The notes under the pieces were generated by a model. That model had not been told where the DNA came from. It saw nothing but the letters and a program-made list of their open reading frames with translations, and did no database searches. Source: an uncultured Actinomycetes bacterium (lineage in GTDB: Bacteria; Actinomycetota; UBA4738; HRBIN12). From it: a DNA stretch of 64,000 nucleotides. The stretch spans positions 63,091-127,090 of the forward strand of contig CAYUSA010000001.1 in assembly GCA_964447335.1 (NCBI GenBank). The letters are read 5' to 3'. Below are positions 2,213 to 54,747 of this stretch, piece by piece (the stretch's first letter is position 1; every line of letters begins with the position of its first letter). Made by a program: the position numbers and the translations under genes.

Positions 2213-2296
2213 CGCCTCCACACCCGATCGCGCGCCTTGCCGCGTTGCCCCATCGCGCATGCGGGTTTCCCGCAACCGTGAGGGTGGTTCTCCCCG

Positions 2297-4000: not shown

Positions 4001-4440
4001 GCGAGGGGCGGGTGCTCGTCGCCGACGACGACGGCCTGGTGCGCGAGGTCGTGCGCGAGCTGCTCGAGGACTATGGGTTCGACATCGTCGGCGAGGCCGA
4101 GGACGGCTCCGTCGCGGTCCGCCTCGCCGGCGAGCTGCTGCCCGACGTCGTGCTGATGGACATGCGGATGCCCGTGATGGACGGCATCGAGGCGACGGCC
4201 GAGATCCGCGGCCGGCAGCCGAACGTCCAGGTCGTGATGCTCTCGGCCTACGACGACGAGGGGTTCAAGCAGGACGCCGAGCAGGCCGGGGCCCTGTGCT
4301 ACCTCGTGAAGGGCATGGGCGGCGGGCTGATCCGGGACGTGCTCCGCTCGGCCGTGGACACGGCGCGAGGGCTGGCGCTGCGAGGGATGGCCGCGGAGGC
4401 GAGCGGGCCTAGCGGGCGCGCTGGACCTTGCCGGCCTTGA
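3997..4440 (+). CDS. single-domain response regulator (receiver only, no output domain)
   Basis: Receiver-domain motifs [25 protein letters not shown] and YLVKG. The 147-aa protein ends without a LuxR helix-turn-helix. The start overlaps the kinase stop, and the 3' end overlaps convergent rpmB by 32 bp. Confidence 0.7.
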
Positions 4441-4600
4441 TGCAGCTCGTGCACGCGTGAACGCGCTTCGGGGTTCCGTTCACCACGGCGCGGACCCGCT
4501 GGATGTTGGGGTTCCACCGGCGCGGGCTCCGGCGGTGGGAGTGGGAGACCTGCATGCCGAAGAACGGCTTCTTCCCGCAGATGTCGCAGACGGCTGCCAT
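4409..4600 (-). CDS. rpmB: 50S ribosomal protein L28
   Basis: [63 protein letters not shown]. The ORF-track N-terminal extension is rejected and the start is placed at the ATG at 4598-4600. Confidence 0.93.
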
Positions 4601-4748
4601 GGCCGAGCAAGGGTAGCAGACGACCGGAGGCGGCCAACCCACGATCCTGAGCTCGGGGCTGGGCCCGCGTGCGCGCTCGGTCGGCCCGGCGTACGTACCG
4701 CTCGACGCCTGAGCGGAACGCGGATGACCCTCGTGGTAGAACCGACCC

Positions 4749-6983: not shown

Positions 6984-7013
6984 TGCTCGCCCGGCGGATG
7001 GGCCGCGGATACC

Positions 7014-10445: not shown

Positions 10446-12780
10446 GGCGGCAGAGCGACCGTCGACCGCGAGGGATCGCCTTTGGCGGTGGTACCTGGGA
10501 TCGGTCTTGTTCTTGGCGGTGCTCTTCGTCCCGCTGCGGGGATCCGACCGGGCGGTCGCCATCCTCAGCGTCGGAGGGATCACCTCGATGCTCGTGGCCA
10601 TCCCGGTGGGGCTCCGTCTCCACCGTCCGGCCGACGTGCGGCCCTGGTACGTGATCCTCGCCGGGATGGCGGGGTCCGTCGTCACGAACGCGATCTCGTA
10701 CTCGGCGAACACCCGGGCCGCCACGCCGGCGTACCCCTCCGTCGTGGACGTCCTCTACGTCGGAGCGTACGTCGTCGTCGTCGCGGGGTTCGCGCTGTTC
10801 GTTCGCGCGAAGATCGCACGGGGTGACCGGGACGGCTTCATCGACGCTCTGATCGTGACCGCGGGGCTGGGGGTGCTGTCCTTCGTCCTCCTGATCGATC
10901 CGTACCTGGACGACGCGAACCTTTCCGCTGTGGCCCGCGCGACGTCCATGTCCCACCCGCTCCTCGAGCTCGCGCTCCTGGGTATCGCCGCACGCCTCGT
11001 ATTCCTGCCGGGGAGGAGGCCCGTCGCGCTCTGGTTCGTCTGCCTGTACGCCGCCCTGTCGTTCGCCGGAGACGCCGTCTACGGCGTCCAGGTCCGGGCC
11101 GAGACCTTCTCGTTCGAGAGCGGGGCCAACGCGCTCTGGATCGCCTCGTTCGCTTTCTTCGGCGCCGGTGCGCTCCACCCGTCGATGCGGGAGCTGACGG
11201 AGCGCCGCAGAGGAGCCGTGTCGGGGAACGGGACGGCCCGACTGGTGGCCTTGGGGGTCATGGCGATGCTGGGCCCCGCGACGTTGGCGATCGGCTGGGG
11301 CCATGCCTCTGGGCACTTCCGTCAGGTTGGCGCGATCTCTGCGGCCGTGGTCGCCCTGGTCCTCGGCCGCATGTGGATGCTGACCGTGGGCCTCGAGACG
11401 CACCGCAGGGCCCAGCAGGCGCTCAGAGAGAGCGAGGAGCGGTCCCGGCGCCTGTCGGACGCGACCTTCGAGGGGGTCATCGTGATCGCGGACGGGAGGA
11501 TCGTCGAGGCGAACCGGGCGTTCCTCGAGATGTTGGGGCTGGAAGCCGAGCAGGTGGTGGGCCTGGCTCCGGAGGAGCTGATAGCGCCCGAGTCCGTCCC
11601 GACGATCTACGAGCACCTGCGCTCCGGGACCGAGGAGCCGTGGGAGATGGAGGTCGTTCTCCGTAACGACCGCCGGATGTGGCACGAGTCGAGGGCGAGC
11701 ACCATCCCCTATGGCGGGTCGGAGGCGCGGGTGATCTCGATCCGCGACATCACGGAGCGGAGGCGCGTGGACGCCGCGCTCCGGGAGAGCGAGCAGCGGT
11801 TCCGGACCTTGTTCGAGACGGCGCTCGACGCGATCGTGGTCATCGATGCTGAAAGCACGATCGTTCAGGCGAACCCGGCCGCTTCCGAGCTCGTCGGGGT
11901 CTCGACCGACCGGATGGTCGGACGCGGCTTCGGGGGGCTCATCGCCCCCGGCTTCGACGCCGACGCCGCACGGGAGACCGCCCACGGGATCGAGGGGTTC
12001 CGCGTGGACATCCCGATCGTGGCGGCCGATGGGACCGAGCGAAAGGTGGAGGCCACCGCCGGCCTGCTCCCCGACGGGAACCTGGTGATCGTCGCCAGGG
12101 ACGTCTCCGAGCGCCGGCGTGCCGAGGAGGAGCTCCGCCGGGCGGAGGACCGATACCGCTCGCTGGTGGAGCGGCTCCCCGGCGCCGTGTACGTGGATGT
12201 TCCCGAGGGCGGCTTGGCCGGGTACACGTCGGTCTTCATCAGCCCCCAGGCCGAGACCCTTCACGGCTACGCGCCGGAGGAGTTCCTGGCCGATCCCGAT
12301 CTCTGGCCCCGGATCCTTCATCCCGAGGACCGCGAGCGGGCCCTGGAGGCCGACGCTCGTCACTGGAAGACCGGCGAGCCCCTGGACCAGGAGTTCCGCG
12401 TGATCGCCAAGGACGGCCGGGTGGTGTGGGTCCGGGACCGGGCCGTCCTGTTGCGCGACGACCAGGGCCGGGCCCTGATGTCCCAGGGGTTCCTGACGGA
12501 CATGACGGACCAGAAGGAGGCGGAGACCCTGCGCGACGCCAGGGACGAGGCCGAGCGCGACAACCGGGTGAGAAGCGAGTTCCTGTCGCGCATGAGTCAC
12601 GAGCTCCGGACGCCGCTGAACGCCATCCTCGGGTTCGGCCAGGTGCTGGAATCATCGTCCCTCGCGCCGGAGGACCGCGACAGCGTGGAGCGGATCATGG
12701 AGGGCGGCCGCCGGCTGCTCGAGCTGGTCGACGACCTGCTCGAGATCTCGCGGACCGGCGGCGGCGCGGGGCGGGGCTAG
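10438..12780 (+). CDS. PAS-rich sensor kinase paralog lacking the ATPase domain (truncated)
   Basis: Membrane domain, three to four PAS repeats, and a HisKA box MSHELRTPLNAILGFGQVLE. It ends 20 aa after the dimerisation helix (LLELVDDLLEISRTGGGAGRG*) with no HATPase_c. The start overlaps the previous gene's stop. Confidence 0.7.
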   Translation: MGEAAERPSTARDRLWRWYLGSVLFLAVLFVPLRGSDRAVAILSVGGITSMLVAIPVGLRLHRPADVRPWYVILAGMAGSVVTNAISYSANTRAATPAYPSVVDVLYVGAYVVVVAGFALFVRAKIARGDRDGFIDALIVTAGLGVLSFVLLIDPYLDDANLSAVARATSMSHPLLELALLGIAARLVFLPGRRPVALWFVCLYAALSFAGDAVYGVQVRAETFSFESGANALWIASFAFFGAGALHPSMRELTERRRGAVSGNGTARLVALGVMAMLGPATLAIGWGHASGHFRQVGAISAAVVALVLGRMWMLTVGLETHRRAQQALRESEERSRRLSDATFEGVIVIADGRIVEANRAFLEMLGLEAEQVVGLAPEELIAPESVPTIYEHLRSGTEEPWEMEVVLRNDRRMWHESRASTIPYGGSEARVISIRDITERRRVDAALRESEQRFRTLFETALDAIVVIDAESTIVQANPAASELVGVSTDRMVGRGFGGLIAPGFDADAARETAHGIEGFRVDIPIVAADGTERKVEATAGLLPDGNLVIVARDVSERRRAEEELRRAEDRYRSLVERLPGAVYVDVPEGGLAGYTSVFISPQAETLHGYAPEEFLADPDLWPRILHPEDRERALEADARHWKTGEPLDQEFRVIAKDGRVVWVRDRAVLLRDDQGRALMSQGFLTDMTDQKEAETLRDARDEAERDNRVRSEFLSRMSHELRTPLNAILGFGQVLESSSLAPEDRDSVERIMEGGRRLLELVDDLLEISRTGGGAGRG

Positions 12781-12811
12781 CACGGCCTGTACGGACGGCG
12801 GGACGCCCGGC

Positions 12812-12883
12812 GCCTACCTCACGAAGCCGTTCGACGTGAAGCGATCCCTGGGCGTCGTCGGAGGTTCCCTCGGGGGCGCGTAG
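12812..12883 (+). pseudogene. receiver-domain C-terminal remnant (AYLTKPFDVKRSLGVVGGSLGGA*)
   Basis: A short peptide in a different frame, right after the truncated kinase. It matches the receiver tail of the 7014..10445 gene (FVTKPIDVKRFLQVV). Confidence 0.5.
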
Positions 12884-12893
12884 GGCCGAGTCC

Positions 12894-14096
12894 TCACCCG
12901 GCGCCCGGCGCTGAGCCCTCGGCGGGAGCCACGAGCCCACCGCCCGAGGTCGCGGTCGCCGGGACCCAGCACTCGACCGTCGTACCCTTCCCGGGCGCCG
13001 TGTCGACGCGCCACCAGCCCCCTGCGAGCTCGGCGCGTTCTCGCATCGCCTTGAGCCCGAGGTGGTGCGAGGTGAGCGACGGGGGTCGCTCGGGGTCGAA
13101 GCCCCTGCCGTCGTCTCGGACCGTGAGGCGGAATCCGTGGTCCGCCTCCTCCACCTCCACGGTGACGCTGGTGGCGCGTGCGTGCTTCGCCACGTTCGCG
13201 AGCGCCTCCTGCGCGATCCGGTACAAGAGCGTGCGCACCCCCAGCTCCGGTTCCTCCGTGATCCGCCGCTCGACGCGCCAGGTCCACCCGGTGTCGGGGG
13301 GCGTGCGCTCGAGGTACTCGGAGAGCGCCTCCGCCAGGCCACCCGAGTCGAGCGCGGAGGGGTGCAGCTCGAAGAGCATGCGTCGGAGCCGGTCCATGGC
13401 TTGATGCACGATCGCCTCGGTCGTCGCGAGCTCCGCGGCCTCCTCGGTCCCCTCGAGCTTGTCGCGGAGCATCTGGAGGCGCAGCACGGCCGCGACCATG
13501 GCCTGCACCGGGTCGTCGTGGATGTTGTACGCGATGCGCCGCTGCTCGTCCTCCTGCGCCGCCACGAGGCGCGCGAGGAGCAGCCGGCGCGTGTCCTGGG
13601 ACGCCCGGAGGTCCCGCAGGGCATCCGAGAGCTCGGCGGTCCGCTCCTCGACCAGCTGCTCCAGGTGCTCGGCGTGCAAGCGAACCTGGAGATGCAGGTC
13701 CCGCGTATGGAGCAGGTTCCGGATCCGAAGGACGGCCTCGACGGCATCGAACGGCTTGGTCAGGAAATCCGAGGCCCCAGCCGCGAGGGCCTTCCGCTTC
13801 GCCGCCTCCGTCACGTCCGCCGTCAGGACCAGCACCGGGAGGAAGTCCTCGGCCGGGACGACCTGGTGGAGGCCCTCGAGGATCTGGTGCCCGCTGACGT
13901 GGGGCATCAGCAGGTCGAGGAGGACGATGTCCGGCTGCCACTCGCGCACGAGCGGGATCGCCTCGCGCGCGTCGGTCGTCCCGTGCACGTGCGGGAACCC
14001 GGCTCCGTACAGCAATCGCTCGAGCAGGCGGACGTTCGGTTCCTCGTCGTCCACGATCAAGATCCGGTGGTCCGTCGGCGCGGTGGTCTCCGTCAT
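12894..14096 (-). CDS. hybrid response-regulator/histidine kinase (REC, HisKA_3, HATPase_c)
   Basis: N-terminal receiver (ILIVDDEE, DIVLLDLLMP, VLVLTAD, FLTKPFD), a coiled coil, the His box RIAYNIHDDPVQ, and an ATPase domain (ANVAKHA...TVRDDGRGFDP...GLKAMRERAELAGG). Confidence 0.8.
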   Translation of the reverse strand: MTETTAPTDHRILIVDDEEPNVRLLERLLYGAGFPHVHGTTDAREAIPLVREWQPDIVLLDLLMPHVSGHQILEGLHQVVPAEDFLPVLVLTADVTEAAKRKALAAGASDFLTKPFDAVEAVLRIRNLLHTRDLHLQVRLHAEHLEQLVEERTAELSDALRDLRASQDTRRLLLARLVAAQEDEQRRIAYNIHDDPVQAMVAAVLRLQMLRDKLEGTEEAAELATTEAIVHQAMDRLRRMLFELHPSALDSGGLAEALSEYLERTPPDTGWTWRVERRITEEPELGVRTLLYRIAQEALANVAKHARATSVTVEVEEADHGFRLTVRDDGRGFDPERPPSLTSHHLGLKAMRERAELAGGWWRVDTAPGKGTTVECWVPATATSGGGLVAPAEGSAPGAG

Positions 14097-14716
14097 GGTC
14101 GGTCCTCCTTCATCCGGCGTCGGCGAGGGTCTGGTCGAGGAGCTTGAGGAACCGCGCGACGTCGAGCGGTTTCGTCATGCATCCGCGAGCGCCCGCGGCG
14201 ACCAGCCGCTCCAGCTTGCTCCGGGTCGTGTCCGCGGTGAGCACGACCATCGAGGATGTGAGCGGTCTCCGGTTCCTCCAGCAGCTTCGAGAGCACGAGC
14301 TCTCCCGACATGTCGGGCAGGCGCAGGTCCAGGAGCACGAGGTCGGGGCGGGTCGTGCGCAGGTGTCGATGCCCAGCGCGCCCGAGGTGACGGCGAGCAG
14401 GTGGATGTGTGGGCGCCGCGTGAGGACCTTCTCGAGCAGCTTGACGTTCGTCGGGTTGTCCTCGATGTAGACGATGGTGGCCGGCCCGTCTCGGGAGCGC
14501 CTGGAACGCCTTGAGCGCCGGTGTCCTCTTGGGGGCCTCCAGGAGGTCGATGCGGAAGCTCGTCCCCCGGCCGGGCACGCTGCTGACGCGGATCGTCCCA
14601 CCTGTGGCCTCGACGAGACGCTTCGTGAGCGCGAGGCCGAGGCCAGCGCCGCGAACCGGGCCCGTCTCGGCGCCGAGCCGCTCGAAGGGGGAGACCTGAG
14701 CGACAGGTCCCGCCAT
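14093..14716 (-). pseudogene. frameshifted 3' fragment of a hybrid kinase (HATPase_c C-terminus plus REC)
   Basis: Homologous segments are split across three minus-strand frames: FERLGAETGPVRGAGLGLALTKRLVEATGGTIRVSS, TIVYIEDNPTNVKLLEKVL, PDLVLLDLRLPDMSGE and VVLTADTT...CMTKPLDVARFLKLL. There are no upstream HisKA or sensor parts. Confidence 0.65.
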
Positions 14717-14916
14717 GCGGAACGCAACTGCACACGCCCTCCTCTCTCTTCGCGGGCGCGGGATGTCGTTCCCGAGGACGCAACCCTAGCGCTTGGTTCC
14801 CCGGCTGCGAATAAGCCGAAGGTCACAGGTCTGCCGTCCCCTTTCCGGGTGATGCTCGATCCCGGGCGGGCCCCCACCGGCGTGAGCGACCCCGGGCTCC
14901 CGAGACGGCGCGGGCC

Positions 14917-16314
14917 GTGGGTGATAATGACCGTCCGGGACGGTCTCTCCAGGAGGGTCGGTTGAGGGACACGAGGCCGCACGAGCCTCGGGGAGCCATT
15001 CGTGGTCACGCCGGTAGCGGCGGTCGTGCTCTCCGGGCGGCGATCGTCTACGCGGTGCTGGGGGTCCTGTGGGTCCTGTTCTCCGACCGGCTCCTCGTGT
15101 GGCTGGTTCGCGACCCGCAGACGCGGGATGTGGTCCAGACCGCGAAGGGGTGGCTGTTCGTCTCGGTGTCTGCCGTGCTCGTGTACGGGTTCGTCCGGCT
15201 CGCCGAGCGGGCCGAGCGCCGTGCCGCTCGGGCCGAGGACTCCCTCCGGGCGAGCCAGGAGTGGCTTCGGAGCATCGCGGAGAACGTGACCGACATGATC
15301 TTCCGGTACCGGGTGGCGGAGCCGCAGGGGTACGAGTACGTGAGTCCCTCCTCGACCGAGATCACGGGTTTCACGCCGGAGGAGCACTACGCGGATCCCC
15401 GTCTGCCTTTCCAGATCGTCCACGGTGACGATCGGAGCGCGCTCGAGCGGCTGCTGTGCGGCGAGTCACGCGGCGAGCGCGTGCGCTTCCAGCGCAAGGA
15501 CGGCAGCACGATCTCGACCGAGTTCCGCGTGCGTGCGATCCTCGACGAGACGGGTCGGCCGGTCGCGGTCGAGGGGATCATTCGCGACGTCACGGCGCTC
15601 GCGCTCACCGAGCAGGAGCTGGAGGAGCGCGTTCTCGACTTCGGGAAGCTGGCCGAGGAACGGCTGGCGCTCATGCGCAAGCTCGTGCACGCGCAGGAGG
15701 AGGAGCGCCGGCGCATCGCGCTCGAGATCCACGACGGGATCGGCCAGGTGCTCACCTCGATCTCGCTCTACGCCTCGGATCTGCCGGAGGTCGTCCCCGA
15801 GGAGCACCGCGCCCGCGCCGAGAGGGTCCGCGAGCTCATCCAGCGTGCGATCGCCGACAGCCGGATGCTCGTCTGGAGCCTGCGTCCGCCGGACCTCGAG
15901 CGCCTGGGCCTGGTCCCGGCGATCCAGCACCTCGTCGAGAACCTCCTCGACCATGCGACGGAGCACCTCGACCATGCGACGGAGCACATCGATGTGCTGG
16001 ACGAGACCAAGGGCCGGCGCCTGACACCCGAGATCGAGACCGTGGTCTTCCGCATCGTGCAGGAGGCACTGAACAACGCGACGAAGTACGCGCACGCATC
16101 GTCCATCTCGGTCGTGGTGGCCATCCGGGACGGCGTGCTCTCCGCGGTGGTCGAGGACGACGGTCGTGGTTTCGACGTCGAGACCGTCGACACGTTCGGT
16201 GGCGTCGGTATGGGCGGGATGCGCGAGCGTGCGGACTTCGTGGGCGGTAGGTTGGTCGTCGAGTCGGCGAAGGACGTCGGCACCGTGGTCCGGCTGGAGG
16301 TCCCGATCCCGTGA
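14917..16314 (+). CDS. PAS sensor histidine kinase (HisKA_3 + HATPase_c)
   Basis: Two transmembrane helices, a PAS domain, the His box RRRIALEIHDGIGQ, and an ATPase domain (QEALNNATKYAHAS...VEDDGRGFD...GMGGMRERA). It contains an in-frame 21-bp tandem duplication (LDHATEH twice). The true start is probably downstream of 14917. Confidence 0.8.
   Translation: MGDNDRPGRSLQEGRLRDTRPHEPRGAIRGHAGSGGRALRAAIVYAVLGVLWVLFSDRLLVWLVRDPQTRDVVQTAKGWLFVSVSAVLVYGFVRLAERAERRAARAEDSLRASQEWLRSIAENVTDMIFRYRVAEPQGYEYVSPSSTEITGFTPEEHYADPRLPFQIVHGDDRSALERLLCGESRGERVRFQRKDGSTISTEFRVRAILDETGRPVAVEGIIRDVTALALTEQELEERVLDFGKLAEERLALMRKLVHAQEEERRRIALEIHDGIGQVLTSISLYASDLPEVVPEEHRARAERVRELIQRAIADSRMLVWSLRPPDLERLGLVPAIQHLVENLLDHATEHLDHATEHIDVLDETKGRRLTPEIETVVFRIVQEALNNATKYAHASSISVVVAIRDGVLSAVVEDDGRGFDVETVDTFGGVGMGGMRERADFVGGRLVVESAKDVGTVVRLEVPIP
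15947..15988 (+). repeat. perfect 21-bp tandem duplication (ctcgaccatgcgacggagcac twice) inside the kinase gene
   Basis: Direct reading of the sequence; it encodes LDHATEH twice. Confidence 0.85.
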
Positions 16315-16952
16315 GCGAGCGGCCCATCCAGGTGATGTTGATGGACGACCACAACGTCGTCCGCGAGGGCCTCCGGGCCCTCCTCGAGCGCCAGACCGAC
16401 ATCCGCGTCGTCGCGGAGGCCGGCACCGTCGCCGAGGCCGAGGCGGCCGAGGTCGAGCCCGACGTGGTCGTCGCCGACCTGGTGCTGCCTGACGAACGCG
16501 GCGCCGAGGTCGTCCGGCGCCTGCGCGAGCGATTCCCCCACTCGGCGATCCTGGTCCTCACGATGGTGGACAACCCGACCGACGTGCAGCTGTGCCTGGC
16601 GGCGGGTGCGAAGGGGTACCTGATGAAGGAGGCCGCGGGCGCCGAGCTGACGGACGCCGTGCGGGCGGTCGCTCAGGGACGCGAGTACCTGCAGCCGGCG
16701 CTCGGTGCGGTGCTCGCGCGGTGGCGCGAGGCACCCGGGAAGATCAGTGCGAAGGCGTCGGTCGACCTCGGCGAGCGCGAGCGCGAGGTGCTGCGCCTGA
16801 TCGCCCTCGGTCACACGAACGCCGAGATCGCGCGCCTACTGTTCCTGTCGGTCCGCACCGTCGAGAACCACCGCGCCAGCCTGATGCGCAAGCTCGGCGT
16901 GAAGACCAGGGCGGACCTGGTCCGGCACGCGACCCAGTCCGGTCTGGTCTGA
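16311..16952 (+). CDS. LuxR/NarL-family response regulator
   Basis: Receiver domain (VMLMDDH, VVVADLVLPD, ILVLTMVD, YLMK) plus a C-terminal LuxR helix-turn-helix (EREVLRLIALGHTNAEIARLLFLSVRTVENHRASLMRKL). The start overlaps the kinase stop. Confidence 0.88.
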   Translation: MSERPIQVMLMDDHNVVREGLRALLERQTDIRVVAEAGTVAEAEAAEVEPDVVVADLVLPDERGAEVVRRLRERFPHSAILVLTMVDNPTDVQLCLAAGAKGYLMKEAAGAELTDAVRAVAQGREYLQPALGAVLARWREAPGKISAKASVDLGEREREVLRLIALGHTNAEIARLLFLSVRTVENHRASLMRKLGVKTRADLVRHATQSGLV

Positions 16953-21899: not shown

Positions 21900-21960
21900 A
21901 TCACAAGTTCGTGAGTCGATTCCCGGAATCCGTGCCTGGGCGCTGCTAGCATCGCCCGGA

Positions 21961-34548: not shown

Positions 34549-34590
34549 GGTCGGGCGGCTCCGAGGACCTATCATCCCGCGGCGGATGAG

Positions 34591-35610
34591 GTGCGCGAGG
34601 TGAACGTCGCGTTCGTGCTCGCCGTTGCGATGGCGCTCGCGTTCGCGCTCACGAACGGGTTCCACGACGCCGCGAACGCGATCGCCACCCTCGTCGCGAC
34701 CCGCGTCGCTCGCCCGCTCCCCGCGGTCGTCATGGCCTCCGTGTGCAACCTGCTCGGGCCGCTGCTCCTCGGGGCCGCGGTGGCGGACACGGTCGCGAGG
34801 ATCGTCCTGCCGCCGCCCGCCGACGTCGTGCCGGTGGTCGGAGCGGGGCTGACCGGCGCCGTGGTGTGGAACCTCGTGACGTGGCGGCGCGGGCTGCCAT
34901 CGAGCTCGAGCCACGCGCTCGTCGGCGGTCTCGTGGGAGCGGCCCTCGTCGCGGCGGGTTCCGACGCCGTGCACTGGGGCGGCCTCGAGGGCTGGCGTCC
35001 GGTCGGCGTGCTCGGCGTCCTGATCGCGCTCGCGGTGTCCCCGCTGCTCGGCTTCGGCGCGGCGGCGCTGATCGAAGCGGGGGCGCGACGCGGCGTGCGC
35101 CGCGCGTCGTCGGCCTTCGCGGTCCCGGTGCGCCGGGCGCAGTGGGTGACCTCGGCATGGCTCGCGCTCTCGCACGGCGCGAACGACGCGCAGAAGTCGG
35201 TCGGCATCGTCGCCGCGCTGCTCCTCGCGAACGGGAGCAGCCGAAGCCTCCACGCGCCAGTGTGGGTGAAGCTCGCATGCGCCGTCGCCCTCACGGCGGG
35301 CACCGCCCTCGGCGGGTGGACCATCGTGCGGACGATCGGGCGGCGGATCGTGCGGCTCCGCCCGCTCGACGGCCTCGTGAGCCAGACGAGCTCCGCGGCG
35401 CTCATCCTCGGCGCGTCGTTGCTCGGCGCGCCGGTCAGCACGACGCAGGTCGTGTCATCCTCGGTCGTGGGGGCGAGCGTCGGCCGGGGGAGAGTCCGGA
35501 GAGTCCGGTGGCAGGTGGTCCGCGGGATCGCGCTCGCGTGGGTGACGACGCTCCCCGCCGCGGGCCTGCTCGCGGCGGCGGTGCTCCCGATCTGGAGGTG
35601 GCTGGCGTGA
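34591..35610 (+). CDS. pit: inorganic phosphate transporter (PiT family)
   Basis: TNGFHDAANAIAT and GANDAQKSVGI signature repeats. Polytopic. Confidence 0.85.
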   Translation: MREVNVAFVLAVAMALAFALTNGFHDAANAIATLVATRVARPLPAVVMASVCNLLGPLLLGAAVADTVARIVLPPPADVVPVVGAGLTGAVVWNLVTWRRGLPSSSSHALVGGLVGAALVAAGSDAVHWGGLEGWRPVGVLGVLIALAVSPLLGFGAAALIEAGARRGVRRASSAFAVPVRRAQWVTSAWLALSHGANDAQKSVGIVAALLLANGSSRSLHAPVWVKLACAVALTAGTALGGWTIVRTIGRRIVRLRPLDGLVSQTSSAALILGASLLGAPVSTTQVVSSSVVGASVGRGRVRRVRWQVVRGIALAWVTTLPAAGLLAAAVLPIWRWLA

Positions 35611-36236
35611 AGAAACGATCGTGGTTCCTGCCGGAGTCGGCGGACGTGCTCGGCATGCTGCGCGAGCAGGCGCGCGTGACGATCGACGGCGTCGAGGCGC
35701 TCGTGGCCTGGGCGGCCGGCGACCCGGCCGGGGCCGACGCCGTGCGCGCGTGCGAGCATCGCGCCGACGATCGCAAGCGCGAGCTCCGACGAGCCCTCAC
35801 CGAGGCCTACACCACGCCGATCGACGCCGAGGACATCTACACGATGTCGGTGCGCCTGGACGGCGTGATGAACGGCGTGAAGGACGCCGTGCGCGAGTCC
35901 GAGGTGATGGCGATCGCGGCCGACGAGCACGTGCTCGCGATGGCCTCGCTCCTCGCGGACGGTGTTCGGCACCTCGCCGACGCGTTCGCCGGGCTCGACG
36001 GCGACGATCAACCCAACGGAGCCGGGAAGGCCGCGACCGAGGCCGCCGACGCGGCCGTCCGCAGTCAGCGACAGCTCGAGCGCGTGTACCGCAGCGCGAT
36101 GTCGGCGCTGCTCGATCTCGTCGACCTGCGCGAGGTCATGGGCAGGCGCGAGCTCTACCGCCGCTTCTCCCGCGTGAGCGAGGAGCTCGTCGAGGTCGCC
36201 GAGCGCGTCTGGTACGCCACCTTCAAAGAGGGCTAG
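35607..36236 (+). CDS. DUF47 (PhoU-like) phosphate-transport accessory protein
   Basis: GTG start overlapping the pit stop. It is all alpha-helical and pairs with PiT genes. Confidence 0.7.
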   Translation: MKKRSWFLPESADVLGMLREQARVTIDGVEALVAWAAGDPAGADAVRACEHRADDRKRELRRALTEAYTTPIDAEDIYTMSVRLDGVMNGVKDAVRESEVMAIAADEHVLAMASLLADGVRHLADAFAGLDGDDQPNGAGKAATEAADAAVRSQRQLERVYRSAMSALLDLVDLREVMGRRELYRRFSRVSEELVEVAERVWYATFKEG

Positions 36237-36284
36237 GCCGCGCCGAGCCGCCATGTCGGTACCTCGCGCTAGCGTCGCGCGATC

Positions 36285-38959: not shown

Positions 38960-40417
38960 TCACCCCAGGCGGCGGAGCGCGGGCGGCACGCCCTCGCGCG
39001 CCACGAGGCGCACGGGGACGCCGGCCGCGTCGAGCAGGCTCGCCGCCATCGCCGAGCGATGGCCGCTCGCGCACGTCACGAGGATCTCGCCCCGGCTCGC
39101 GGTGCGCGCGAGCTCCGGGAGCCGGGCGGGCAGGTCGCCGACGAAGCAGTGCCGGCTCCCGGGCAGGTGGCCCTCCTCCCACTCCGTCGCCTCGCGGACA
39201 TCGAGGATGTGCGTGCCGCCGCGCTCGACCTCGGCGAGCAGGTCGGCGACCGTCGCGACGGGGTACGAGGCGAGCACGCGCCCGGAGGCACCCCAGGCGT
39301 CCACGCCGCCGTCGAGGAACCCGAGCAGGTGCTCGAACCCGATGCGGAAGAGCTGGACCTGCGCCTCGGCGCGCTCGGCGGCGTCCTCGGCGACGACGAC
39401 CAGCGGCGCGTCGAACGGCAGGAGCCAGCCGACATAGCTCGCGAAGGAGTCCTCGAGCCGCACGTTGAGCGAACCGGGCACGTGCGCCGCGGCGAAGGCC
39501 TCGCCGCCGCGGCCGTCCACGAGCCGCACGCCCGTCTCGAGCAGCCGAGCGACCTCGTCGGGGCCGAGCGGCGGGGCGGCCGGCGCGCCGCCGAGCACCC
39601 GAGGCCCGGCGCGGTTGATCGGCGCCATGTGCGCGTAGTACGCCGGGAAGGCACCCAGGCTCGCGAGCTGCTCGCGTACGAACGTCGCCTCGTCGGGCGA
39701 GGCGAGCGCTGGATCCGTCCTGCGCTCGCGGCCGATCGTCGAGGTCCGCTCCTCGTCCGGTGAGCCGGTCGCGCAGAAGCTCCCGGCGCCGTGGGTCGGG
39801 AGCAGGAGCGTCGCGTCGGGCATCGAGGCGAGACGCGCCATGGTGCCGTGCTGGGCCCGTGCGAGCTCCTCGGCCAGCTCGTCGCCGAGCAGGTCGGTGC
39901 GTCCGGCGCTCCCCACGATGAGGCTGCCGCCCGAGAACACCGCCACCGGCGCGTCGGCGCCGGGCGAGCGCACCACGTACGAGGTGTGCTCGGGGGTGTG
40001 CCCCGGCGTCGCGAGGGCCACGAGCCGGAGCTCACCGACCTCGAGCTCGTCGCCGTCCTCAACACCGCGGAACGCGAACGCGTAGCCGGCGCGGGCGGGG
40101 CCGACGATCTCGGCGCCGGTCACCGCGCGCACCTCGGCGGCGCCGGAGACGTAGTCGTTGTGGACGTGCGTCTCGAGCACGAACCGCACGCGGGCACCTC
40201 GTGCCTCGGCGGCGGCGAGCATCCGAGCCGCGTCGCGCTGCGGGTCGATGAGCACCGCTTCTCCTGCCGACGCGAGCAGGTAGCTGCTGTCGCCGAGCCC
40301 CGGGGTCACGAACGCCTCGAGGTCGAACCCGGGAACCATCCGCGCATGGTACGCCCCGCCGACCGGGTCCCGAGCCTGCGCGCGGGAGCTTGAACCGGAC
40401 CCGTCCGGTTGGTACAA
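38960..40417 (-). CDS. MBL-fold metallo-hydrolase fused to tandem rhodanese domains (persulfide-dioxygenase/sulfurtransferase-like)
   Basis: MBL motif region THVHNDY...TPGHTPEH, and a rhodanese active-site loop CASGHRS near the C-terminus. The likely start is the internal Met near 40342. Confidence 0.7.
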   Translation of the reverse strand: MYQPDGSGSSSRAQARDPVGGAYHARMVPGFDLEAFVTPGLGDSSYLLASAGEAVLIDPQRDAARMLAAAEARGARVRFVLETHVHNDYVSGAAEVRAVTGAEIVGPARAGYAFAFRGVEDGDELEVGELRLVALATPGHTPEHTSYVVRSPGADAPVAVFSGGSLIVGSAGRTDLLGDELAEELARAQHGTMARLASMPDATLLLPTHGAGSFCATGSPDEERTSTIGRERRTDPALASPDEATFVREQLASLGAFPAYYAHMAPINRAGPRVLGGAPAAPPLGPDEVARLLETGVRLVDGRGGEAFAAAHVPGSLNVRLEDSFASYVGWLLPFDAPLVVVAEDAAERAEAQVQLFRIGFEHLLGFLDGGVDAWGASGRVLASYPVATVADLLAEVERGGTHILDVREATEWEEGHLPGSRHCFVGDLPARLPELARTASRGEILVTCASGHRSAMAASLLDAAGVPVRLVAREGVPPALRRLG

Positions 40418-40446: not shown

Positions 40447-41382
40447 ATGCCGGCCCGCGAGGAACTTCCCCGAACGGATGACGAGCGGCTCATCGCCGAG
40501 TTCGCCGACCACCTGGCGTTCGAGCGCCGCCTGTCCGAGCACACGGTCGCGGCGTACCGGCGCGACCTCACGCAGCTCGCGGTGTTCCTCTCGCGGCAGC
40601 GGCGGAGCCTCGTCGCCGCGACGTACCCCGAGCTGCGGCGGTTCCTCGCGCAGCAGGCGACCCTCGGGTACGCGCGCTCCTCGATCGCGCGCCGGGTCGG
40701 GGCCATCCACACCTTCTACCGCTGGGCCACCGGACGGCGTCTCGTCCCTCGTGACCCGGCGGCGCTCCTCGGCCGGCCGAAGGTCGTGAATCGCCTGCCG
40801 ACGGTCCTTCGCGTCCGCGAGGCCGCCGAGCTCGTTGAGGCGCCGACGGCACCCGAGGACGCCGACCCGGCCGGGTCGGCGGTGGCCCTCCGCGACCGGG
40901 CGATCCTCGAGCTCATGTACGGCTCGGGGCTCCGCGTGGCCGAGGTCGCCGGCCTCACCGTCGACCGCGTCGACCTCGCCCGCGGCCGCGTCATGGTGCT
41001 CGGCAAGGGCTCCAAGGAGCGCGAGGTCCCGATGTCCGAGCCGGCGTGCGTGGCCGCGGAGGCGTACCTCGCGCTGGCTCGCGCCGAGATGTCCGAGAAG
41101 GGCTCGGTGGCGATGTTCTTCAACCGAAGGGGAAACCCCATCGGAACACGCGACATCCGCCGCCTTGTGGCACGATACGGAGCGCAGATGCCGTCGGGGC
41201 GGCACGTCACGCCGCACACGCTCCGGCACTCGTTCGCGACGCACCTGCTCGAGGGAGGAGCCGACATCAGGGCCGTCCAGGAGCTGCTCGGCCACGCGAG
41301 CGTGGCGACCACACAGCGGTACACGCACGTCTCGCGCACACGCCTGTTCGAGGCCTACAAGCAGAGCCACCCGAGGGCCTGA
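40447..41382 (+). CDS. xerC: tyrosine recombinase XerC
   Basis: Catalytic residues sit in the R...[12 protein letters not shown]...[13 protein letters not shown] context. The start was chosen at the internal ATG of the ORF-track frame. Confidence 0.85.
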
Positions 41383-42281
41383 TGCCACGCGCCGCGAAGA
41401 CGACCGAGCGCAAGCCCGCGGCGAAGGCTGCGCCGAAGGCCAAGGCGAAGCCCGAGGAGCCCGCGAAGGGCCGCAAGACCCTCAAGCCCGCGAAGCCACC
41501 GCTCACGCCCGAGGCCGAAGCCGCCGCCGCGGAGCTCGCCGAGCTGTGGGACGCCTTCAAGAGCACGGCCGACGCCGGGATGCGCGAGCGGCTGATCCTG
41601 CACTACGCGCCGCTCGTGAAGTACGTCGCGAGCCGCGTTGCCACCGGACTGCCGGCGAGCGTCGATCAGGCCGATCTCGTCTCCTACGGGATGTTCGGGC
41701 TGATCGACGCCCTCGAGAAGTTCGAGCCGGCGCGGGGCAACAAGTTCGAGACGTACGCCATCCCTCGTATCAAGGGCGCGATCATCGACGAGCTCCGCGC
41801 GATGGACTGGGTCCCGCGTTCGGTGCGCTTCAAGGCTCGCGAGATCGAGAAGGCGTACGCGGACCTGGAGGCGATGCTGAAGCGCGCGCCTAGCGAGAAG
41901 GAGGTCGCCGGCCGACTCGGCGTCTCGCTCCCCGAGCTCCACGACGTCATCAACCAGATCTCCTTCGTGTCCGTGCTCGCGCTCGACGAGCTGCTCGCGG
42001 TCGGCAGCGACCGCGGCGAGCACGTGTCGCTCATGGACACCCTGGCCGACCGGAGCGTCGATCCGACGACCGGGCTGGAGGGCCAGGAGACGAGGGGACT
42101 CCTCGCCGCCGCGATCAACTCGCTGTCCGAGCGCGAGAAGATCGTCGTCACCCTCTACTACTTCGAGGGCCTCACCCTCGCCGAGATCGGCGACATCCTG
42201 GGCGTGACGGAGTCCCGCGTCTGCCAGATCCACACGAAAGCGGTCGGCCAGCTCCGCCTCCAGCTCGTCGAGGTCGAGTGA
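41382..42281 (+). CDS. FliA/WhiG-family (group 3) RNA polymerase sigma factor with a Lys/Ala/Pro-rich N-terminal tail
   Basis: ATG overlapping the xerC stop. Sigma regions 2, 3 and 4 are present ([11 protein letters not shown], ...[37 protein letters not shown]). Confidence 0.82.
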
Positions 42282-42303
42282 CGCTCGTCGAGGTCGAGTG
42301 ACA
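42264..42303 (+). repeat. perfect 20-bp tandem duplication (gctcgtcgaggtcgagtgac twice) spanning the stop codon of the sigma gene
   Basis: Direct reading. The second copy repeats the last 17 nt plus the stop. Confidence 0.85.
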
Positions 42304-42313
42304 ACCCGTCGGG

Positions 42314-42329
42314 TGTGACCTTGTTCACA
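42314..42329. promoter_or_regulatory. CRP/FNR-type palindrome TGTGA-N6-TCACA
   Basis: Exact match to the TGTGAnnnnnnTCACA consensus, 53 bp upstream of the M23 peptidase start. Confidence 0.5.
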
Positions 42330-42381
42330 GCGCCCGGGCCTCGTCCGGCGTAGCGTCGACGCGTTCGGCCAAGGAGGTCCG

Positions 42382-42918
42382 GTGCTGCGATCGTGGAGCC
42401 TGGTCCTCCCCCTCGTGCTCGGCCTGGCGGCGCCCGGTCGCGTGTCCGCATCCGTCGGGGCACCGGTGGTGCAAGCGTGGGCGTGGCCGGTCGTCGGTCC
42501 GGTCATCCGCGACTACGACCCGCCCGAGAACCCCTACGGCTCGGGCCACCGTGGGATCGACATCGCGGCCGCTGTGGGGACCACCATCTCGGCGCCCGAG
42601 GCCGGCGAGGTGAGCTTCGCCGGCAAGGTCGGGGGGCAGCTCTTCGTCACGCTGGATCACGGGGGCGGCCTCTCGAGCACGTACTCGTGGCTCTCGGCCA
42701 TCCTGGTCCGCAAGGGCGACGTCGTCCCGCTGGGAGCGCGGATCGGGCTCACGGGTCTCGGACATCCGGGCTCGACGGCTCCCCACCTGCACTTCGGGGT
42801 GAAGCTCGACGGAGCCTACCTGGACCCGCTCGACCTGCTCGGCCCCGCGCCGGTCGCAGGCCTCATCCATCTCGCCCCGGAGCTGGCGGTTCCCGCGCCT
42901 TCGCCCGGCGGAGCCTGA
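42382..42918 (+). CDS. secreted M23-family metallopeptidase
   Basis: Signal peptide, HRGIDIAA, and HLHFGV motifs. Confidence 0.82.
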   Translation: MLRSWSLVLPLVLGLAAPGRVSASVGAPVVQAWAWPVVGPVIRDYDPPENPYGSGHRGIDIAAAVGTTISAPEAGEVSFAGKVGGQLFVTLDHGGGLSSTYSWLSAILVRKGDVVPLGARIGLTGLGHPGSTAPHLHFGVKLDGAYLDPLDLLGPAPVAGLIHLAPELAVPAPSPGGA

Positions 42919-43023
42919 CGCGCCGGGGCGCACCTCGAACCGCTGTTCCCGCGTCTCGACGCGACCCGCGGTCGCCGGTCGAGGTCGCTGCGCCGGCGCT
43001 AGGATGGGCGCCCCCGACCGAGG

Positions 43024-44529
43024 ATGGCCCGCCTGCGCTCTCACCCCGTCCGCCCGATCTGCCGCGCCGCGCTCGCGGCGCTGGTGCTCGCGTGCCTCGG
43101 GGCGTGGCCGGCGCTCGCGCAGGAGGGCGGTGATCTCGAGTGGCCGCAGTTCCAGGGCGGCCCGGGGCATGCCGGCGTGGCCGTACAGGCGCCGGTGCCC
43201 CCGTATCGCGAGCTGTGGCGGTTCACTCCCGCCGACGGTGCGCTCTCCGGGGCGGTCGTCGCTGGAGGCCTGGCGATCTCGGTCGGCATCGACGCGGTCT
43301 ACGCGCTCGACCTGCGGACCGGGGACGTCGCCTGGCAGGTGCCGAGGAACGGCGGGCTCCTCAGCATGCCGGCCGCCGGTCTCGCGGGCGAGCGGCAGGT
43401 GCTCGTCTTCATCGACGGACCCCGGGGCGCCGAGGACGACGCAGACGCCTCGTCCACCCCAAGTGCGAGCCCGACCTCGTCCCCATCGGCGAGCGTCTCG
43501 CCCAGCCCCGGTGCCGAGCCCGCCGGCGCGGCGGTTTCGGAGCTCGTCGCGATCGACCTCGCCGACCACTCGGAGCTGTGGCGCACCCCGCTCGGGGCCG
43601 TGAGCCGGAGCGGCGTCACGATCGACGGCGATCGAGCATTCGTCGCCGACGACGACGGAACGGTGTCGGCGGTGGAGCTCGGGACCGGCGCCGTGGCGTG
43701 GACGGCCGAGGCGGTCGGCCGCGTGGAGTCCCCGCCGGCGGCTGCGGACGGCCAGGTCTACGTCGTCGCGCGCGACGCCGACGGCCAGAAGGCGCAGGTC
43801 CTCGCGCTCGACGAGGCGACCGGCGGGCGCGCGTGGGAGTTCTCCCCGCAGGCCGGCGCGGTCGCCGTCTCCGCCGCCGCCGCGGGCGGCGGAGCCGTGG
43901 AGTTCGGGGCCGCGGACCGCCTGGTGCGCGGCCTGTCCGCCGGGGACGGGGAGGTCCGCTTCACCGCGCTCTCCCTCACGCTCTTCTCGCCGGTGAGCGC
44001 GCCGGCACTCGCCCCGAACGGGGTGTTCATCGCGGACGCCTCCGGCGGCGTCTACCGCATCGACCCGACCGATGGCGCGCGCACGTGGCAGCACCAGCTG
44101 AATGACCTCATCGTGCGGAGCTCGCCGGTGGTGACGGGCTCGTTCGCGCTCGTCGGGCTGAACGACGGGCGGCTGGTCGCGCTCGACGTGGAGACCGGCG
44201 ACCTGGTGTGGGAGAGCGCGGCGACACCGGGACTGATCGGCACGATCGCCCTCGCGCGCGACGTGGTCGTCGCGGTCAAGGGCGGCAAGGAGGCCGGGCT
44301 CATCGCGTTCGAGCACGACCCGGAGGGCACGCTCGTGCGCGTGCCGTCGCCCACCGTGATGGACGCCGGTCGGCTGTTCGGCAACTTCGCCATCGCCTTC
44401 GTCGTCGCCGCGGTCGCCATCTTCGTTCCGTTCCGGCTCCTGCGCGCGCGCCTCGGGCCGGCGTTCTGGCGCGAGCCCGGCGGCGACGACCTCACCGATG
44501 AGGACTCCGACGACGAGGAAGCGCCGTGA
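43024..44529 (+). CDS. secreted PQQ-repeat beta-propeller protein with a C-terminal membrane anchor and acidic tail
   Basis: Signal peptide, repeated D...TG...W motifs (LDLRTGDVAWQ, VELGTGAVAWT, LDEATGGRAWEF, LDVETGDLVWE), then a hydrophobic segment and a D/E tail. Confidence 0.7.
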   Translation: MARLRSHPVRPICRAALAALVLACLGAWPALAQEGGDLEWPQFQGGPGHAGVAVQAPVPPYRELWRFTPADGALSGAVVAGGLAISVGIDAVYALDLRTGDVAWQVPRNGGLLSMPAAGLAGERQVLVFIDGPRGAEDDADASSTPSASPTSSPSASVSPSPGAEPAGAAVSELVAIDLADHSELWRTPLGAVSRSGVTIDGDRAFVADDDGTVSAVELGTGAVAWTAEAVGRVESPPAAADGQVYVVARDADGQKAQVLALDEATGGRAWEFSPQAGAVAVSAAAAGGGAVEFGAADRLVRGLSAGDGEVRFTALSLTLFSPVSAPALAPNGVFIADASGGVYRIDPTDGARTWQHQLNDLIVRSSPVVTGSFALVGLNDGRLVALDVETGDLVWESAATPGLIGTIALARDVVVAVKGGKEAGLIAFEHDPEGTLVRVPSPTVMDAGRLFGNFAIAFVVAAVAIFVPFRLLRARLGPAFWREPGGDDLTDEDSDDEEAP

Positions 44530-45500
44530 CGAGCAAGCGCCGGAAGAAGCCGACGGGCTACCGCTCCGCCCCCGTGATGCCGGCGTCGGCCGCCGCGAGG
44601 GCGGCGAAGGCCTCGAAGACCGCCGAGGCACCGGCTCGGGCCGGGGCCCCCGGCATCCTCGGCTGGCTGTCTCGACCCACGGGGGACTCATCGTGGCCGA
44701 CGATCTGGAAGTCGCTCGGCCGCGGGTTCGCCACGGTCGGCTCCTCGGCCGTCGTGCTCCTCACCGCATCCGTCCTGCTGCTGGTGATGTGGGTGGCCCT
44801 GGTCGCTCTCGGGCTGGCGGGACCGCCCGCGCGCCTGGTGAATCTCCTCGCTCTCCCGCCGATCAGCACCTACTTCGACGCCCTGAACGGGGTGACGATG
44901 TACGGGTTCGGACCCCAGGGGTTCATCTCGGCAACCGCGTTCCTGCTCGTGCGCGCGGTCGTGCTCGCGCTGCTCACCGCGCTCGTCGTGCGCATCTACG
45001 AGGGCGAGGGCACGCTCGGCGAGGCGCTCGCGCGCGGTGTCCGAGCGATCCCCGTCGCGGTCGCGGTCAACCTGCTCACGCTCGCGATGATGGTGGGGGG
45101 CAGCATAGTCCTCCCGCTGCTGGGGGCCGGACTCGGGTTCCTGGCCTCCGTGCTCACGCTGGTGGCGGCGCTGTTCCTGTTCGTCTTCGCGCCGATCCTC
45201 GCGGTGCGGGAGCCCGAGCGACCCTTCTACGACATCGTCCGTCGGGGTGCCCGCGCGGCGATGCTGCCCGGGAGCCGGCACCTGCTCATGAGCATGCTCT
45301 ACATCTTCCTCACGCTGCCGATCCTGGTCGCACTCGCGCCCGGAGGCTCGCTCCTCGGCGTGAACCCGACGGTCGCGATGTGGATCTACGCGCTCGTGTG
45401 CACCTTCGTCCACCTCGCGTTCCTGGCCGCGTTCGCGTTCCGCGTGCTGTCGATCGAGGACGAGATCCCCGATCAGCCGGTGAAGATGCGCCGACGGTAG
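44526..45500 (+). CDS. polytopic membrane protein, function unknown
   Basis: The start overlaps the previous stop. Basic N-terminus, then about six hydrophobic helices. Confidence 0.55.
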
Positions 45501-53243: not shown

Positions 53244-54301
53244 AGCTGCTGCAGAAGCTGCCGACGATCCGGGCGAAGCTCGGTTCGGTGATCGTGTTCG
53301 CGGTCGGGATGACGATCCTGCTCGTCTACCTGCTCCTCGGCATCGTGTTCCATGTGTTCGCGATCCGCGAGCACTGGTGGGAGCTGCTGCTCGCGGGGGC
53401 GCTCGGCGCCGGGCTCGCGCTCCTCATCGCCCGGTGGGTCGCGCGGGGGATGACGCAGCCGCTGCGAGACATGGCACAGGCCGCCCGGCGCATGGAGCGC
53501 GGCGACTACGCCCAGCGCGTCGTCACGGCCTCGGTCGACGAGGTCGGACAGCTCGCGCAGGCCTTCAACCGCATGAGCGCCGAGCTCGACCAGCTGGAAG
53601 GCCTCCGCCGCGACCTCGTCGCGAACGTCAGCCATGAGCTGAAGACGCCGATCTCGGCGCTCCGCGCGCACCTGGAGAACCTCCTCGACGGTGTGGAGCA
53701 ACCCGACCCCGACACCCTGCAGGTCATGCTCGCGCAGTCCGAGCGGCTCGGGCGTCTCGTCGACCAGCTGCTCGAGCTCTCGCGGATCGAGTCGGGCGAC
53801 GTGCCGCTGCGGCGCGAGGAGGTCTATCTCGGTCCGCTCGTCTCGGAGGTCGTTTCGGAGATCGAGGTGGCCCGGGCCGACCGCGGTGTGGCACTCGAGC
53901 GCGCGATGCCCGCGGATCTGCCGGCCGTCTTCGCGGACCGCGAGCGGATCCACCAGGTCCTGTTCAACCTGCTCGACAACGCCGTGCGCTTCACGCCCTC
54001 TGGCGGGCGCGTGACGGTGACGGCCGACCGTCACAACGGTGCGGTCGACGTGCACGTCGCCGACACCGGCCCCGGCATCGCGGCCGAGCACCTGCCGCGG
54101 CTGTTCGAGCGCTTCTACCGTGTCGACCCCGCGCGATCGCAGAAGGACGGCGGGACCGGTATCGGCCTCGCGATCGCGCGCTCGGTCGTCGAGGCCCACG
54201 GCGGCCGCATCTGGGCGGAGAGCAGCCCGGGGGTCGGAAGCGTGTTCACGTTCGAGCTACCGGTCGCACCCGCGGCCGCAACGACAAGGAGGGAACCGTG
54301 A
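53240..54301 (+). CDS. intramembrane-type sensor histidine kinase (two transmembrane helices, HAMP, HisKA, HATPase_c)
   Basis: VSHELKTPISAL His box and G boxes DTGPGI and GTGIGLAIA. No substantial periplasmic loop. Confidence 0.85.
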   Translation: MKLLQKLPTIRAKLGSVIVFAVGMTILLVYLLLGIVFHVFAIREHWWELLLAGALGAGLALLIARWVARGMTQPLRDMAQAARRMERGDYAQRVVTASVDEVGQLAQAFNRMSAELDQLEGLRRDLVANVSHELKTPISALRAHLENLLDGVEQPDPDTLQVMLAQSERLGRLVDQLLELSRIESGDVPLRREEVYLGPLVSEVVSEIEVARADRGVALERAMPADLPAVFADRERIHQVLFNLLDNAVRFTPSGGRVTVTADRHNGAVDVHVADTGPGIAAEHLPRLFERFYRVDPARSQKDGGTGIGLAIARSVVEAHGGRIWAESSPGVGSVFTFELPVAPAAATTRREP

Positions 54302-54747
54302 GGTCGGTCACCACCACGGTCGAGGTCGCCGCGCCGCAGCGCTACGCCTACCTCGACCTCACCGAGGAGCTCCAGCGCGCGATCAAGGACTCGGGCGTCA
54401 CCGACGGAGCCGCGATCGTCTTCTGCGCGCACACGACGTGCGCCCTGCTCATCAACGAGTGGGAGGACGGCGCGATGCAGGACTTCCGGTCGCGGATGCA
54501 GCACCTCGTACCCGAGGACACCTACTACGCGCACGACGATCTCGACCGGCGGACGCAGAACCTCGAGGAATCGCACGAGCGCCGCAACGGGCACTCGCAC
54601 GTGAAGTCGATGCTGTTGTCGGCGAGCTCCCACGCGATCCCCGTGGTGGCGGGCGAGCCGGCGCTCGGCCGGTGGCAGCGACTCATCCTGTTCGAGATGG
54701 ACGAGCCGAAGGAGCGCCAGGTCCTGTTCCACGTGTTCGGCGAGTGA
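54298..54747 (+). CDS. YjbQ/UPF0047 family protein (secondary thiamine-phosphate synthase-like)
   Basis: GTG start overlapping the kinase stop. AIVFCAHTTCALLINEWEDG...GHSH motifs. Confidence 0.75.
   Translation: MRSVTTTVEVAAPQRYAYLDLTEELQRAIKDSGVTDGAAIVFCAHTTCALLINEWEDGAMQDFRSRMQHLVPEDTYYAHDDLDRRTQNLEESHERRNGHSHVKSMLLSASSHAIPVVAGEPALGRWQRLILFEMDEPKERQVLFHVFGE

Follow-up and report, generated by a model that had tools for sequence, protein, structure and literature searches.

A CRP-type palindrome at a fixed promoter position upstream of a secreted M23 peptidase gene in uncultured Actinomycetota

A perfect CRP-type palindrome lies between a sigma factor gene and the gene for a secreted M23 peptidase in an uncultured member of the Actinomycetota (71% G+C, represented by metagenome assemblies only). 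Judged by comparison of related genomes, the palindrome is a functional regulator-binding site, and it keeps its exact promoter position in about 40 species of uncultured actinobacteria. Its binding protein quite probably belongs to the CRP family. In the mechanism proposed here, a helix-turn-helix regulator would bind the palindrome as a dimer; the CRP-family protein of this organism is the most likely candidate. The operator would overlap the -35 region of a SigA-type M23 promoter, with its centre about 41.5 bp upstream of the transcription start, and from there the dimer would touch RNA polymerase and turn on transcription of the gene, which encodes a secreted peptidoglycan endopeptidase. 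The same combination of operator and promoter would drive comM-dprA, comEA-comEC and the gene for a SAF/RcpC protein, making up a small regulon of DNA uptake and envelope remodelling. Taken as a whole, this explanation, in which a CRP-family protein activates the M23 gene from a class II position and M23 is one member of a small regulon, seems on balance to be right.

The palindrome was found in a 64-kb stretch of DNA, referred to below as the window. Its gene order comM-dprA-xerC-whiG-M23-(PQQ protein)-(unknown protein)-rpsB-tsf-pyrH-frr is a conserved actinobacterial block. A sigma factor gene of the whiG/fliA type (41382-42281, + strand, 299 aa, stop codon TGA at 42279-42281), whose homologues are named WhiG or FliA, is followed by a gap of 100 nt and then by the gene for the secreted, LytM-type M23 peptidase (42382-42918, + strand, 178 aa; Pfam PF01551, E = 2.3e-22). 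The peptidase translation has a signal-like N-terminal segment and intact zinc-binding motifs (HRGID and HLH), and the gene call is identical on three independent contigs. A ribosome-binding site, AAGGAGG, can be read in the sequence at 42371-42377 (+ strand), 4 nt before the GTG start codon. Within the whiG-M23 gap lies the operator, the 16-bp palindrome TGTGAccttgtTCACA (42314-42329, assigned to neither strand), which starts 33 nt past the whiG stop and ends 52 nt before the M23 GTG at 42382. The original prediction had placed a perfect TGTGA-N6-TCACA here, upstream of the M23 gene and downstream of the sigma gene, and the sequence confirms it.

Other features of the window may be recorded alongside. 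The whiG stop codon is spanned by a perfect 2 x 20-bp tandem duplication, GCTCGTCGAGGTCGAGTGAC (42263-42302), which accounts for the distance of 33 nt between the whiG stop and the operator. In most relatives that distance is about 5-30 nt, and the intergenic flanks inspected from the other species show no such duplication. A gene for a metallo-beta-lactamase plus rhodanese protein (38960-40417, - strand) sits between dprA and xerC and looks like a species-specific insertion, because these two genes are adjacent in nearly all relatives. Between the PQQ gene and rpsB is the gene for a 324-aa protein (44526-45500) that has no Pfam match and whose orthologues across the lineage (L005-L053) are 27-66% identical. 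Two-component and PAS/GAF sensor kinase genes are densely clustered around recG (2282-16952) and include one for a 1153-aa hybrid kinase. No Rfam family was found in the window, and therefore no riboswitch (e.g., ydaO) upstream of the hydrolase gene.

The exact motif TGTGA-N6-TCACA occurs once in the window (TGTGACCTTGTTCACA, 42314-42329). Dinucleotide-preserving shuffles of the window gave a mean of 0.02 matches, with one or more matches in 2 of 100 shuffles, and the earlier statement that a full-consensus site would be rare by chance is upheld by the one found against 0.02 expected. The core GTGA-N6-TCAC was seen twice against 0.8 expected, and the motif with up to two mismatches is not enriched in the window (5 seen, 8.7 expected). 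With a position weight matrix trained on relatives, the focal site scores 31.8 bits against a shuffled-window maximum of 16.6 bits, and the same scan found no second significant operator site in the 64 kb. A core match at 54298-54311, GTGAGGTCGGTCAC, overlaps the GTG start of a UPF0047 gene directly past an AAGGAGG ribosome-binding site; it lacks promoter geometry and is probably due to chance. Another candidate, at 21909-21960, consists of CGTGAgtcgatTCCCG followed by 21 nt, TAGCAT, 8 nt and the ATG of smc, which is the geometry of a leaderless promoter. It was rejected as an operator, its 11.3 bits being within the chance range (mean shuffle maximum 10.7). The strongest argument against chance is the comparison across species rather than the statistics within the window.

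For that comparison, 80 loci from species-representative genomes were fetched with the WhiG protein as query. The synteny dprA-xerC-whiG-M23-PQQ-unknown-rpsB is complete in about 44 of the 80 (WhiG identity of about 62% or more). When at most one mismatch is allowed, the whiG-M23 intergenic DNA (9.4 kb in total) contains 25 matches to the palindrome and the remainder of these loci (353 kb) contains 4, a 235-fold enrichment of the operator in the orthologous intergenic region; two of the four matches elsewhere mark a second real promoter, that of comM. Alignment of the best site per locus brought together 42 loci of species-level relatives without gaps, and the consensus operator of the lineage is [T/C]GTGA-N6-TCAC[G/A/T], followed by G. 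Positions G2, T3, G4, T12, C13 and A14 are each present in 42/42 loci, and A5 and C15 in 38/42 each; position 1 is T or C, and position 16 is G, T or A. In these 42 loci the six spacer bases and both flanks are near background, and information content is limited to positions 1-5 and 12-17. The half-sites have thus been held by purifying selection while the spacer was free to change across species. Since both arms are kept in sequence and the spacer is free, the pattern is the signature of a dimeric DNA-binding protein and not of a hairpin.

The promoter itself is as constant as the operator. A -10 hexamer of the actinobacterial TANNNT type, TAGCGT, lies 21 nt past the operator in the window (42351-42356, + strand). 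The gap from operator to TANNNT is exactly 21 nt in all 42 loci, and the hexamer, which played no part in picking the 42 sites, is usually TAGCGT, with alignment columns T38, A39 and T43 invariant. In 30 of the 42 loci an in-frame M23 start codon (ATG, GTG or TTG) follows 6-9 nt past the hexamer, which points to leaderless mRNA, marks the hexamer as the -10 box and fixes the transcription start. Leaderless mRNAs are common in Actinobacteria. From the distance between -10 box and leaderless start in relatives, transcription in the window is predicted to begin at 42362-42364, near 42363 (+ strand), which would leave a leader of ~19 nt containing the Shine-Dalgarno sequence. Counted from the predicted starts, the operator centre in most leaderless loci lies at -41.5 (6-nt gap) or -42.5 (7-nt gap). 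A centre near -41.5 is that of a class II activator, with CRP lying over the -35 region and in contact with RNA polymerase (PMC2844151). With the transcription start as inferred, the operator has this geometry, overlap with the -35 region included.

No -35 hexamer is recognisable in the window promoter, and alignment columns 18-37 are variable in the 42 loci. A -35 consensus is often missing from actinobacterial promoters, which is the reason that an operator placed over this region could also repress. The right half-site was considered as the -35 element of a sigma factor and rejected; conservation of the left half-site is just as strong, and about 20 nt is too long a spacing. No intrinsic terminator was found between whiG and the operator. 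The M23 promoter would be activated rather than repressed by the bound protein, although a CRP(Mt) site at -37.5 of whiB1 is a repressing one (PMC2844151).

The identity of the binding protein can be approached through the well-studied CRP of Mycobacterium tuberculosis, CRP(Mt) (Rv3676). Its motif is (C/T)GT(G/C)(A/G)-N6-(T/C)(C/G)AC(G/A), in which the bases G4 and C13 discriminate CRP from its paralogue Cmr (PMC5758884). Both the window site and the 42-locus consensus have the symmetric form (C/T)GTGA-N6-TCAC(G/A) of a CRP-family operator, both discriminating bases are those of CRP (G4 in 42/42, C13 in 42/42), and all ten half-site positions, the degenerate outer ones included, fit the CRP(Mt) motif. 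The CRP(Mt) sites thus share with the present ones the phylum, the 16-bp motif, the degenerate outer bases and G4/C13 (PMC5758884). The prediction of a CRP-type operator at the promoter that serves the secreted M23 peptidase is borne out by conservation in 42 species and a CRP(Mt)-like consensus.

Additional evidence for a CRP-family protein comes from public metagenome contigs, which were scanned with a 15-base pattern of the composite site and gave at least 120 matches. At positions left free by the pattern, T or C was present at position 1 in 92/120 and A or G at position 16 in 83/120 of the matches listed. Among the matches listed from other lineages, genes of the CRP/FNR family (25-35% identity to M. 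tuberculosis CRP) are found near the composite site: within about 50 nt in L094 (gene at 1365-2041), L107 (323-976) and L179 (1184-1900), and about 2.6 kb away in L116. A CRP-family binder is the simplest account of the data because the half-sites match, the geometry is that of class II, and CRP genes stand beside the same pattern elsewhere. That the operator depends on cAMP would be pure conjecture, and CRP(Mt) has appreciable DNA binding without cAMP and only a weak cAMP dependence (PMC2844151).

Several observations count against the CRP reading. No CRP-family, adenylate cyclase or other candidate regulator gene is present in the window or in the relatives' loci: tblastn with an M. tuberculosis CRP sequence as probe gave no match in the window or the 80 loci, and Pfam scans of about 50 window ORFs contained no CRP, Rex or adenylate cyclase. 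The comM site is present in only 9 of 31 readable relatives, and comM of the window is without it. Finally, TGTGACCTTGTTCACA closely resembles TTGTGACCTGCTTCACAT, the footprinted Rex operator of Streptomyces avermitilis nuoA1.

An M23 gene under CRP has a direct actinobacterial precedent, because CRP(Mt) binds upstream of Rv0950c, in the Rv0950c-sucC intergenic region. This gene encodes an M23-domain protein (PMC8594824) and is a strong target, with the fourth-strongest CRP ChIP-seq peak in M. tuberculosis (PMC4117774). The arrangement differs, CRP(Mt) site centres being at -69.5 and -106.5 for Rv0950c and at -58.5 and -37.5 for whiB1, whereas here the centre is at -41.5 and the phasing is invariant. 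The M23 gene described here is also linked to whiG and rpsB and is the positional counterpart of Rv2891, not of Rv0950c. Control of wall hydrolases by CRP in M. tuberculosis is exemplified by rpfA. Another actinobacterial CRP homologue, GlxR of Corynebacterium glutamicum, uses the same half-sites (TGTGA-N2-TA-N2-TCACA), but the central TA preference is not shared, the present spacer being near background. With class II CRP-dependent promoters of E. coli (centre -41.5, e.g., galP1) there is a common overlap of the -35 region, lack of a recognisable -35 hexamer and strict helical phasing. The promoters described here differ in being served by an actinobacterial polymerase, with a TANNNT -10 box and many leaderless orthologous promoters, and in having C and G as spacer-proximal bases where E. 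coli has T and A.

The original prediction also extended control by the operator to the downstream gene for a secreted PQQ-repeat protein, and this part does not stand. The PQQ/BamB-like gene (43024-44529) has its own -10 box, TAGGAT (43000-43005, + strand), separate from the operator promoter. In the M23-PQQ intergenic regions of L007-L053, a box of the form TAGGAT, TAGAAT or TACAAT is kept in most relatives, with the TTG or GTG of a leaderless reading frame 7-9 nt past it in most of them. No CRP-like palindrome was found before the gene in the M23-PQQ intergenic regions of the relatives or the window. Given this separate conserved promoter, control of the gene by the operator is unsupported; transcription reading through from the M23 gene may occur but need not be invoked.

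The operator is not confined to the M23 promoter. Relatives' loci were scanned by regular expression for the composite of operator, 21 nt and -10 box, and in 9 relatives comM, the first gene of comM-dprA, has GTGA-N6-TCAC, a 21-nt gap, TAGCGT and a leaderless start (L013:174, L014:196, L015:190, L017:134, L026:216, L030:119, L031:86, L040:218 and L053:131). Of the 31 lineage loci in which the comM start could be read, the other 22 have no operator there, and neither has the window: its comM promoter consists of a -10 box (TAGCGT, 36270-36275) ahead of a GTG start codon (36285) and is abutted by a phosphate transporter gene (pit) plus an unannotated ORF (34549-36237). Relatives without the comM operator (L012, L016, L018, L022, L023, L034 and others) share another conserved element instead, TGTCGGTGG or TGTCACTGC, which falls between positions -35 and -10, some 12-20 nt ahead of the -10 box of comM; in the window this element is at about 36253-36262.

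Among the matches listed from the metagenome scan, high-G+C contigs with leaderless promoters have as downstream gene M23 on at least 5 contigs, ComEA on at least 4 and a SAF/RcpC protein ('CpaB'), which is membrane-anchored, on at least 6. Independent comEA and SAF/RcpC loci were then retrieved through protein similarity and not through the motif. In six distinct comEA-comEC-holA loci, NGTGA-N6-TCAC-N-G is separated by 21 nt from TA[GA]CGT, and an ATG lies 6-7 nt further on; in a seventh comEA locus the gap is 24 nt. A SAF/RcpC homologue 38% identical to the query is preceded by TGTGAgctccgTCACA, the 21-nt gap and TAGCGT. By their G+C content, promoter style and 'Actinomycetota bacterium' labels, the comEA and SAF/RcpC contigs would belong to the same clade as the whiG loci. 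The SAF/RcpC gene has as neighbours moaC, moeA, galU, an FmdB zinc-ribbon gene, a nucleosidase gene and uppP, and a 'CpaB' role in a Tad pilus was rejected, since this neighbourhood is not a tad operon. Just upstream of SAF/RcpC is a conserved small ORF (57-65 aa, MA..LV..EL.F..EEDP...; L222 9759-9956 and L223 9752-9925) that is not pilin-like and whose 3' end overlaps the operator.

The matches listed also include two other recurrent promoter families, from organisms of lower G+C. In one, CGTGATCTTTCTCACA... precedes the gene of a secreted Gly-rich protein (L087, L113, L119, L122, L127, L130, L139 and L157); in the other, whose sequence is TGTGAATGTCATCACG in most members, the promoter precedes the gene of a DUF2799 lipoprotein (L099, L104, L123, L141, L198 and L203). 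Both families probably represent class II promoters of the CRP type from other phyla.

Among the alternatives to a CRP-family protein, the one that survives best is a lineage-specific dimeric regulator of DNA-uptake and envelope genes from outside the CRP/FNR family, with GTGA/TCAC half-sites in common with CRP. The circuit does appear to be lineage-specific, because loci of Acidimicrobiia and Streptomyces with whiG-M23 synteny lack the M23 site. In the portion of the M. tuberculosis ChIP data that could be consulted there is no CRP peak at comEA, comM, dprA or Rv2891, and the competence regulators of Actinomycetota have not yet been identified (PMC12849477). Such a regulator is nevertheless unlikely in view of the fit of the ten half-site positions to the CRP(Mt) motif, a class II geometry that suits CRP, and the CRP-family genes that adjoin the same composite pattern in other lineages.

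A second alternative is that the palindrome is an operator for Rex, the NADH/NAD+-sensing repressor, which would overlap the -35 region and hold the M23 promoter repressed until the redox balance shifts. The Rex operator (ROP) of Streptomyces and other Gram-positive bacteria, TTGTGAA-N4-TTCACAA, contains TGTGA-N6-TCACA, is found in Actinobacteria and is often placed over the -35 region (PMC5355995). Footprinted S. avermitilis operators overlap the -35 region in this way, and that of nuoA1, TTGTGACCTGCTTCACAT, is nearly identical to the window site (PMC5355995), whose right half reads TTCACA. The outer and inner bases specific to Rex are, however, not kept across the 42 species (A6 in 1/42, T11 in 5/42, T0 in 3/42, A17 in 3/42 with G17 in 37/42), and the window copy has T11 only of these. 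Nor are the genes of the module (M23, comM-dprA, comEA-comEC and SAF/RcpC) respiratory, fermentative or otherwise redox genes, and no rex gene is present in the window or the relatives' loci. An invariant 21-nt phasing is expected of an activator that touches polymerase and is unnecessary for a repressor. Taken together, these points make Rex control quite improbable.

That the palindrome is a whiG terminator or mRNA hairpin, or else a functionless chance repeat, is very improbable indeed: it is a perfect inverted repeat in the 3' region of whiG, and an exact match arose in 2 of 100 shuffles, but the stem has just 5 base pairs with neither a U-tract nor a terminator-like site, the RNA of the 100-nt gap is no more stably folded than shuffled sequences (z = -1.03), there is no pairing between the two arms in its minimum-energy structure, the arms are kept across species as sequence and not through compensatory changes, and chance is excluded by the 42-species conservation together with the fixed phasing to the -10 box. 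A BldD box and direct repeats of the MtrA, AfsQ1 and PhoP kinds, also weighed as alternative sites, do not fit in orientation, spacing or two-fold symmetry, and the central bases differ (G versus C) in the way that a palindrome predicts.

With a CRP-family protein as the preferred binder, the gene content of the module invites comparison with Gammaproteobacteria, where CRP controls competence regulons (PMC10187061). In the CRP-S/Sxy (TfoX) regulons of that class a CRP-type palindrome likewise precedes homologues of comEA, comM and dprA. The CRP-S sites have a TGCGA core (TGCGA-N6-TCGCA) and need Sxy, whereas the sites described here, in the phylum Actinomycetota, have the canonical GTGA core in 42/42 loci, with T3 and A14 also in 42/42.

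We tentatively propose, as a possibility well short of an established regulon, that CRP-type control joins comEA-comEC and comM-dprA with the M23 peptidase and the SAF/RcpC envelope protein. The link of the module to transformation is one that we infer from gene content only. Operators of the CRP type and class II promoters are established, as is the control of wall hydrolases by CRP; what appears to be undescribed is that comEA-comEC and comM-dprA of Actinomycetota share this operator. A literature search on comEA with cAMP receptor protein sites in Actinobacteria found none, and the one paper that came up mentions CRP for Gram-negative bacteria. According to a 2026 study, the competence regulatory cascade of Actinomycetota is still to be identified (PMC12849477).

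If the proposal is true, Actinomycetota would have their first candidate circuit for the transcriptional control of natural competence, with wiring like that of the gammaproteobacterial CRP competence regulons, but with canonical class II sites on leaderless promoters. The M23 site itself offers a clean, phylogenetically footprinted class II promoter in a phylum whose promoter architecture is poorly defined. The shared operator would provide a handle on the control of competence genes in Actinomycetota, for which cAMP would be the obvious candidate signal.
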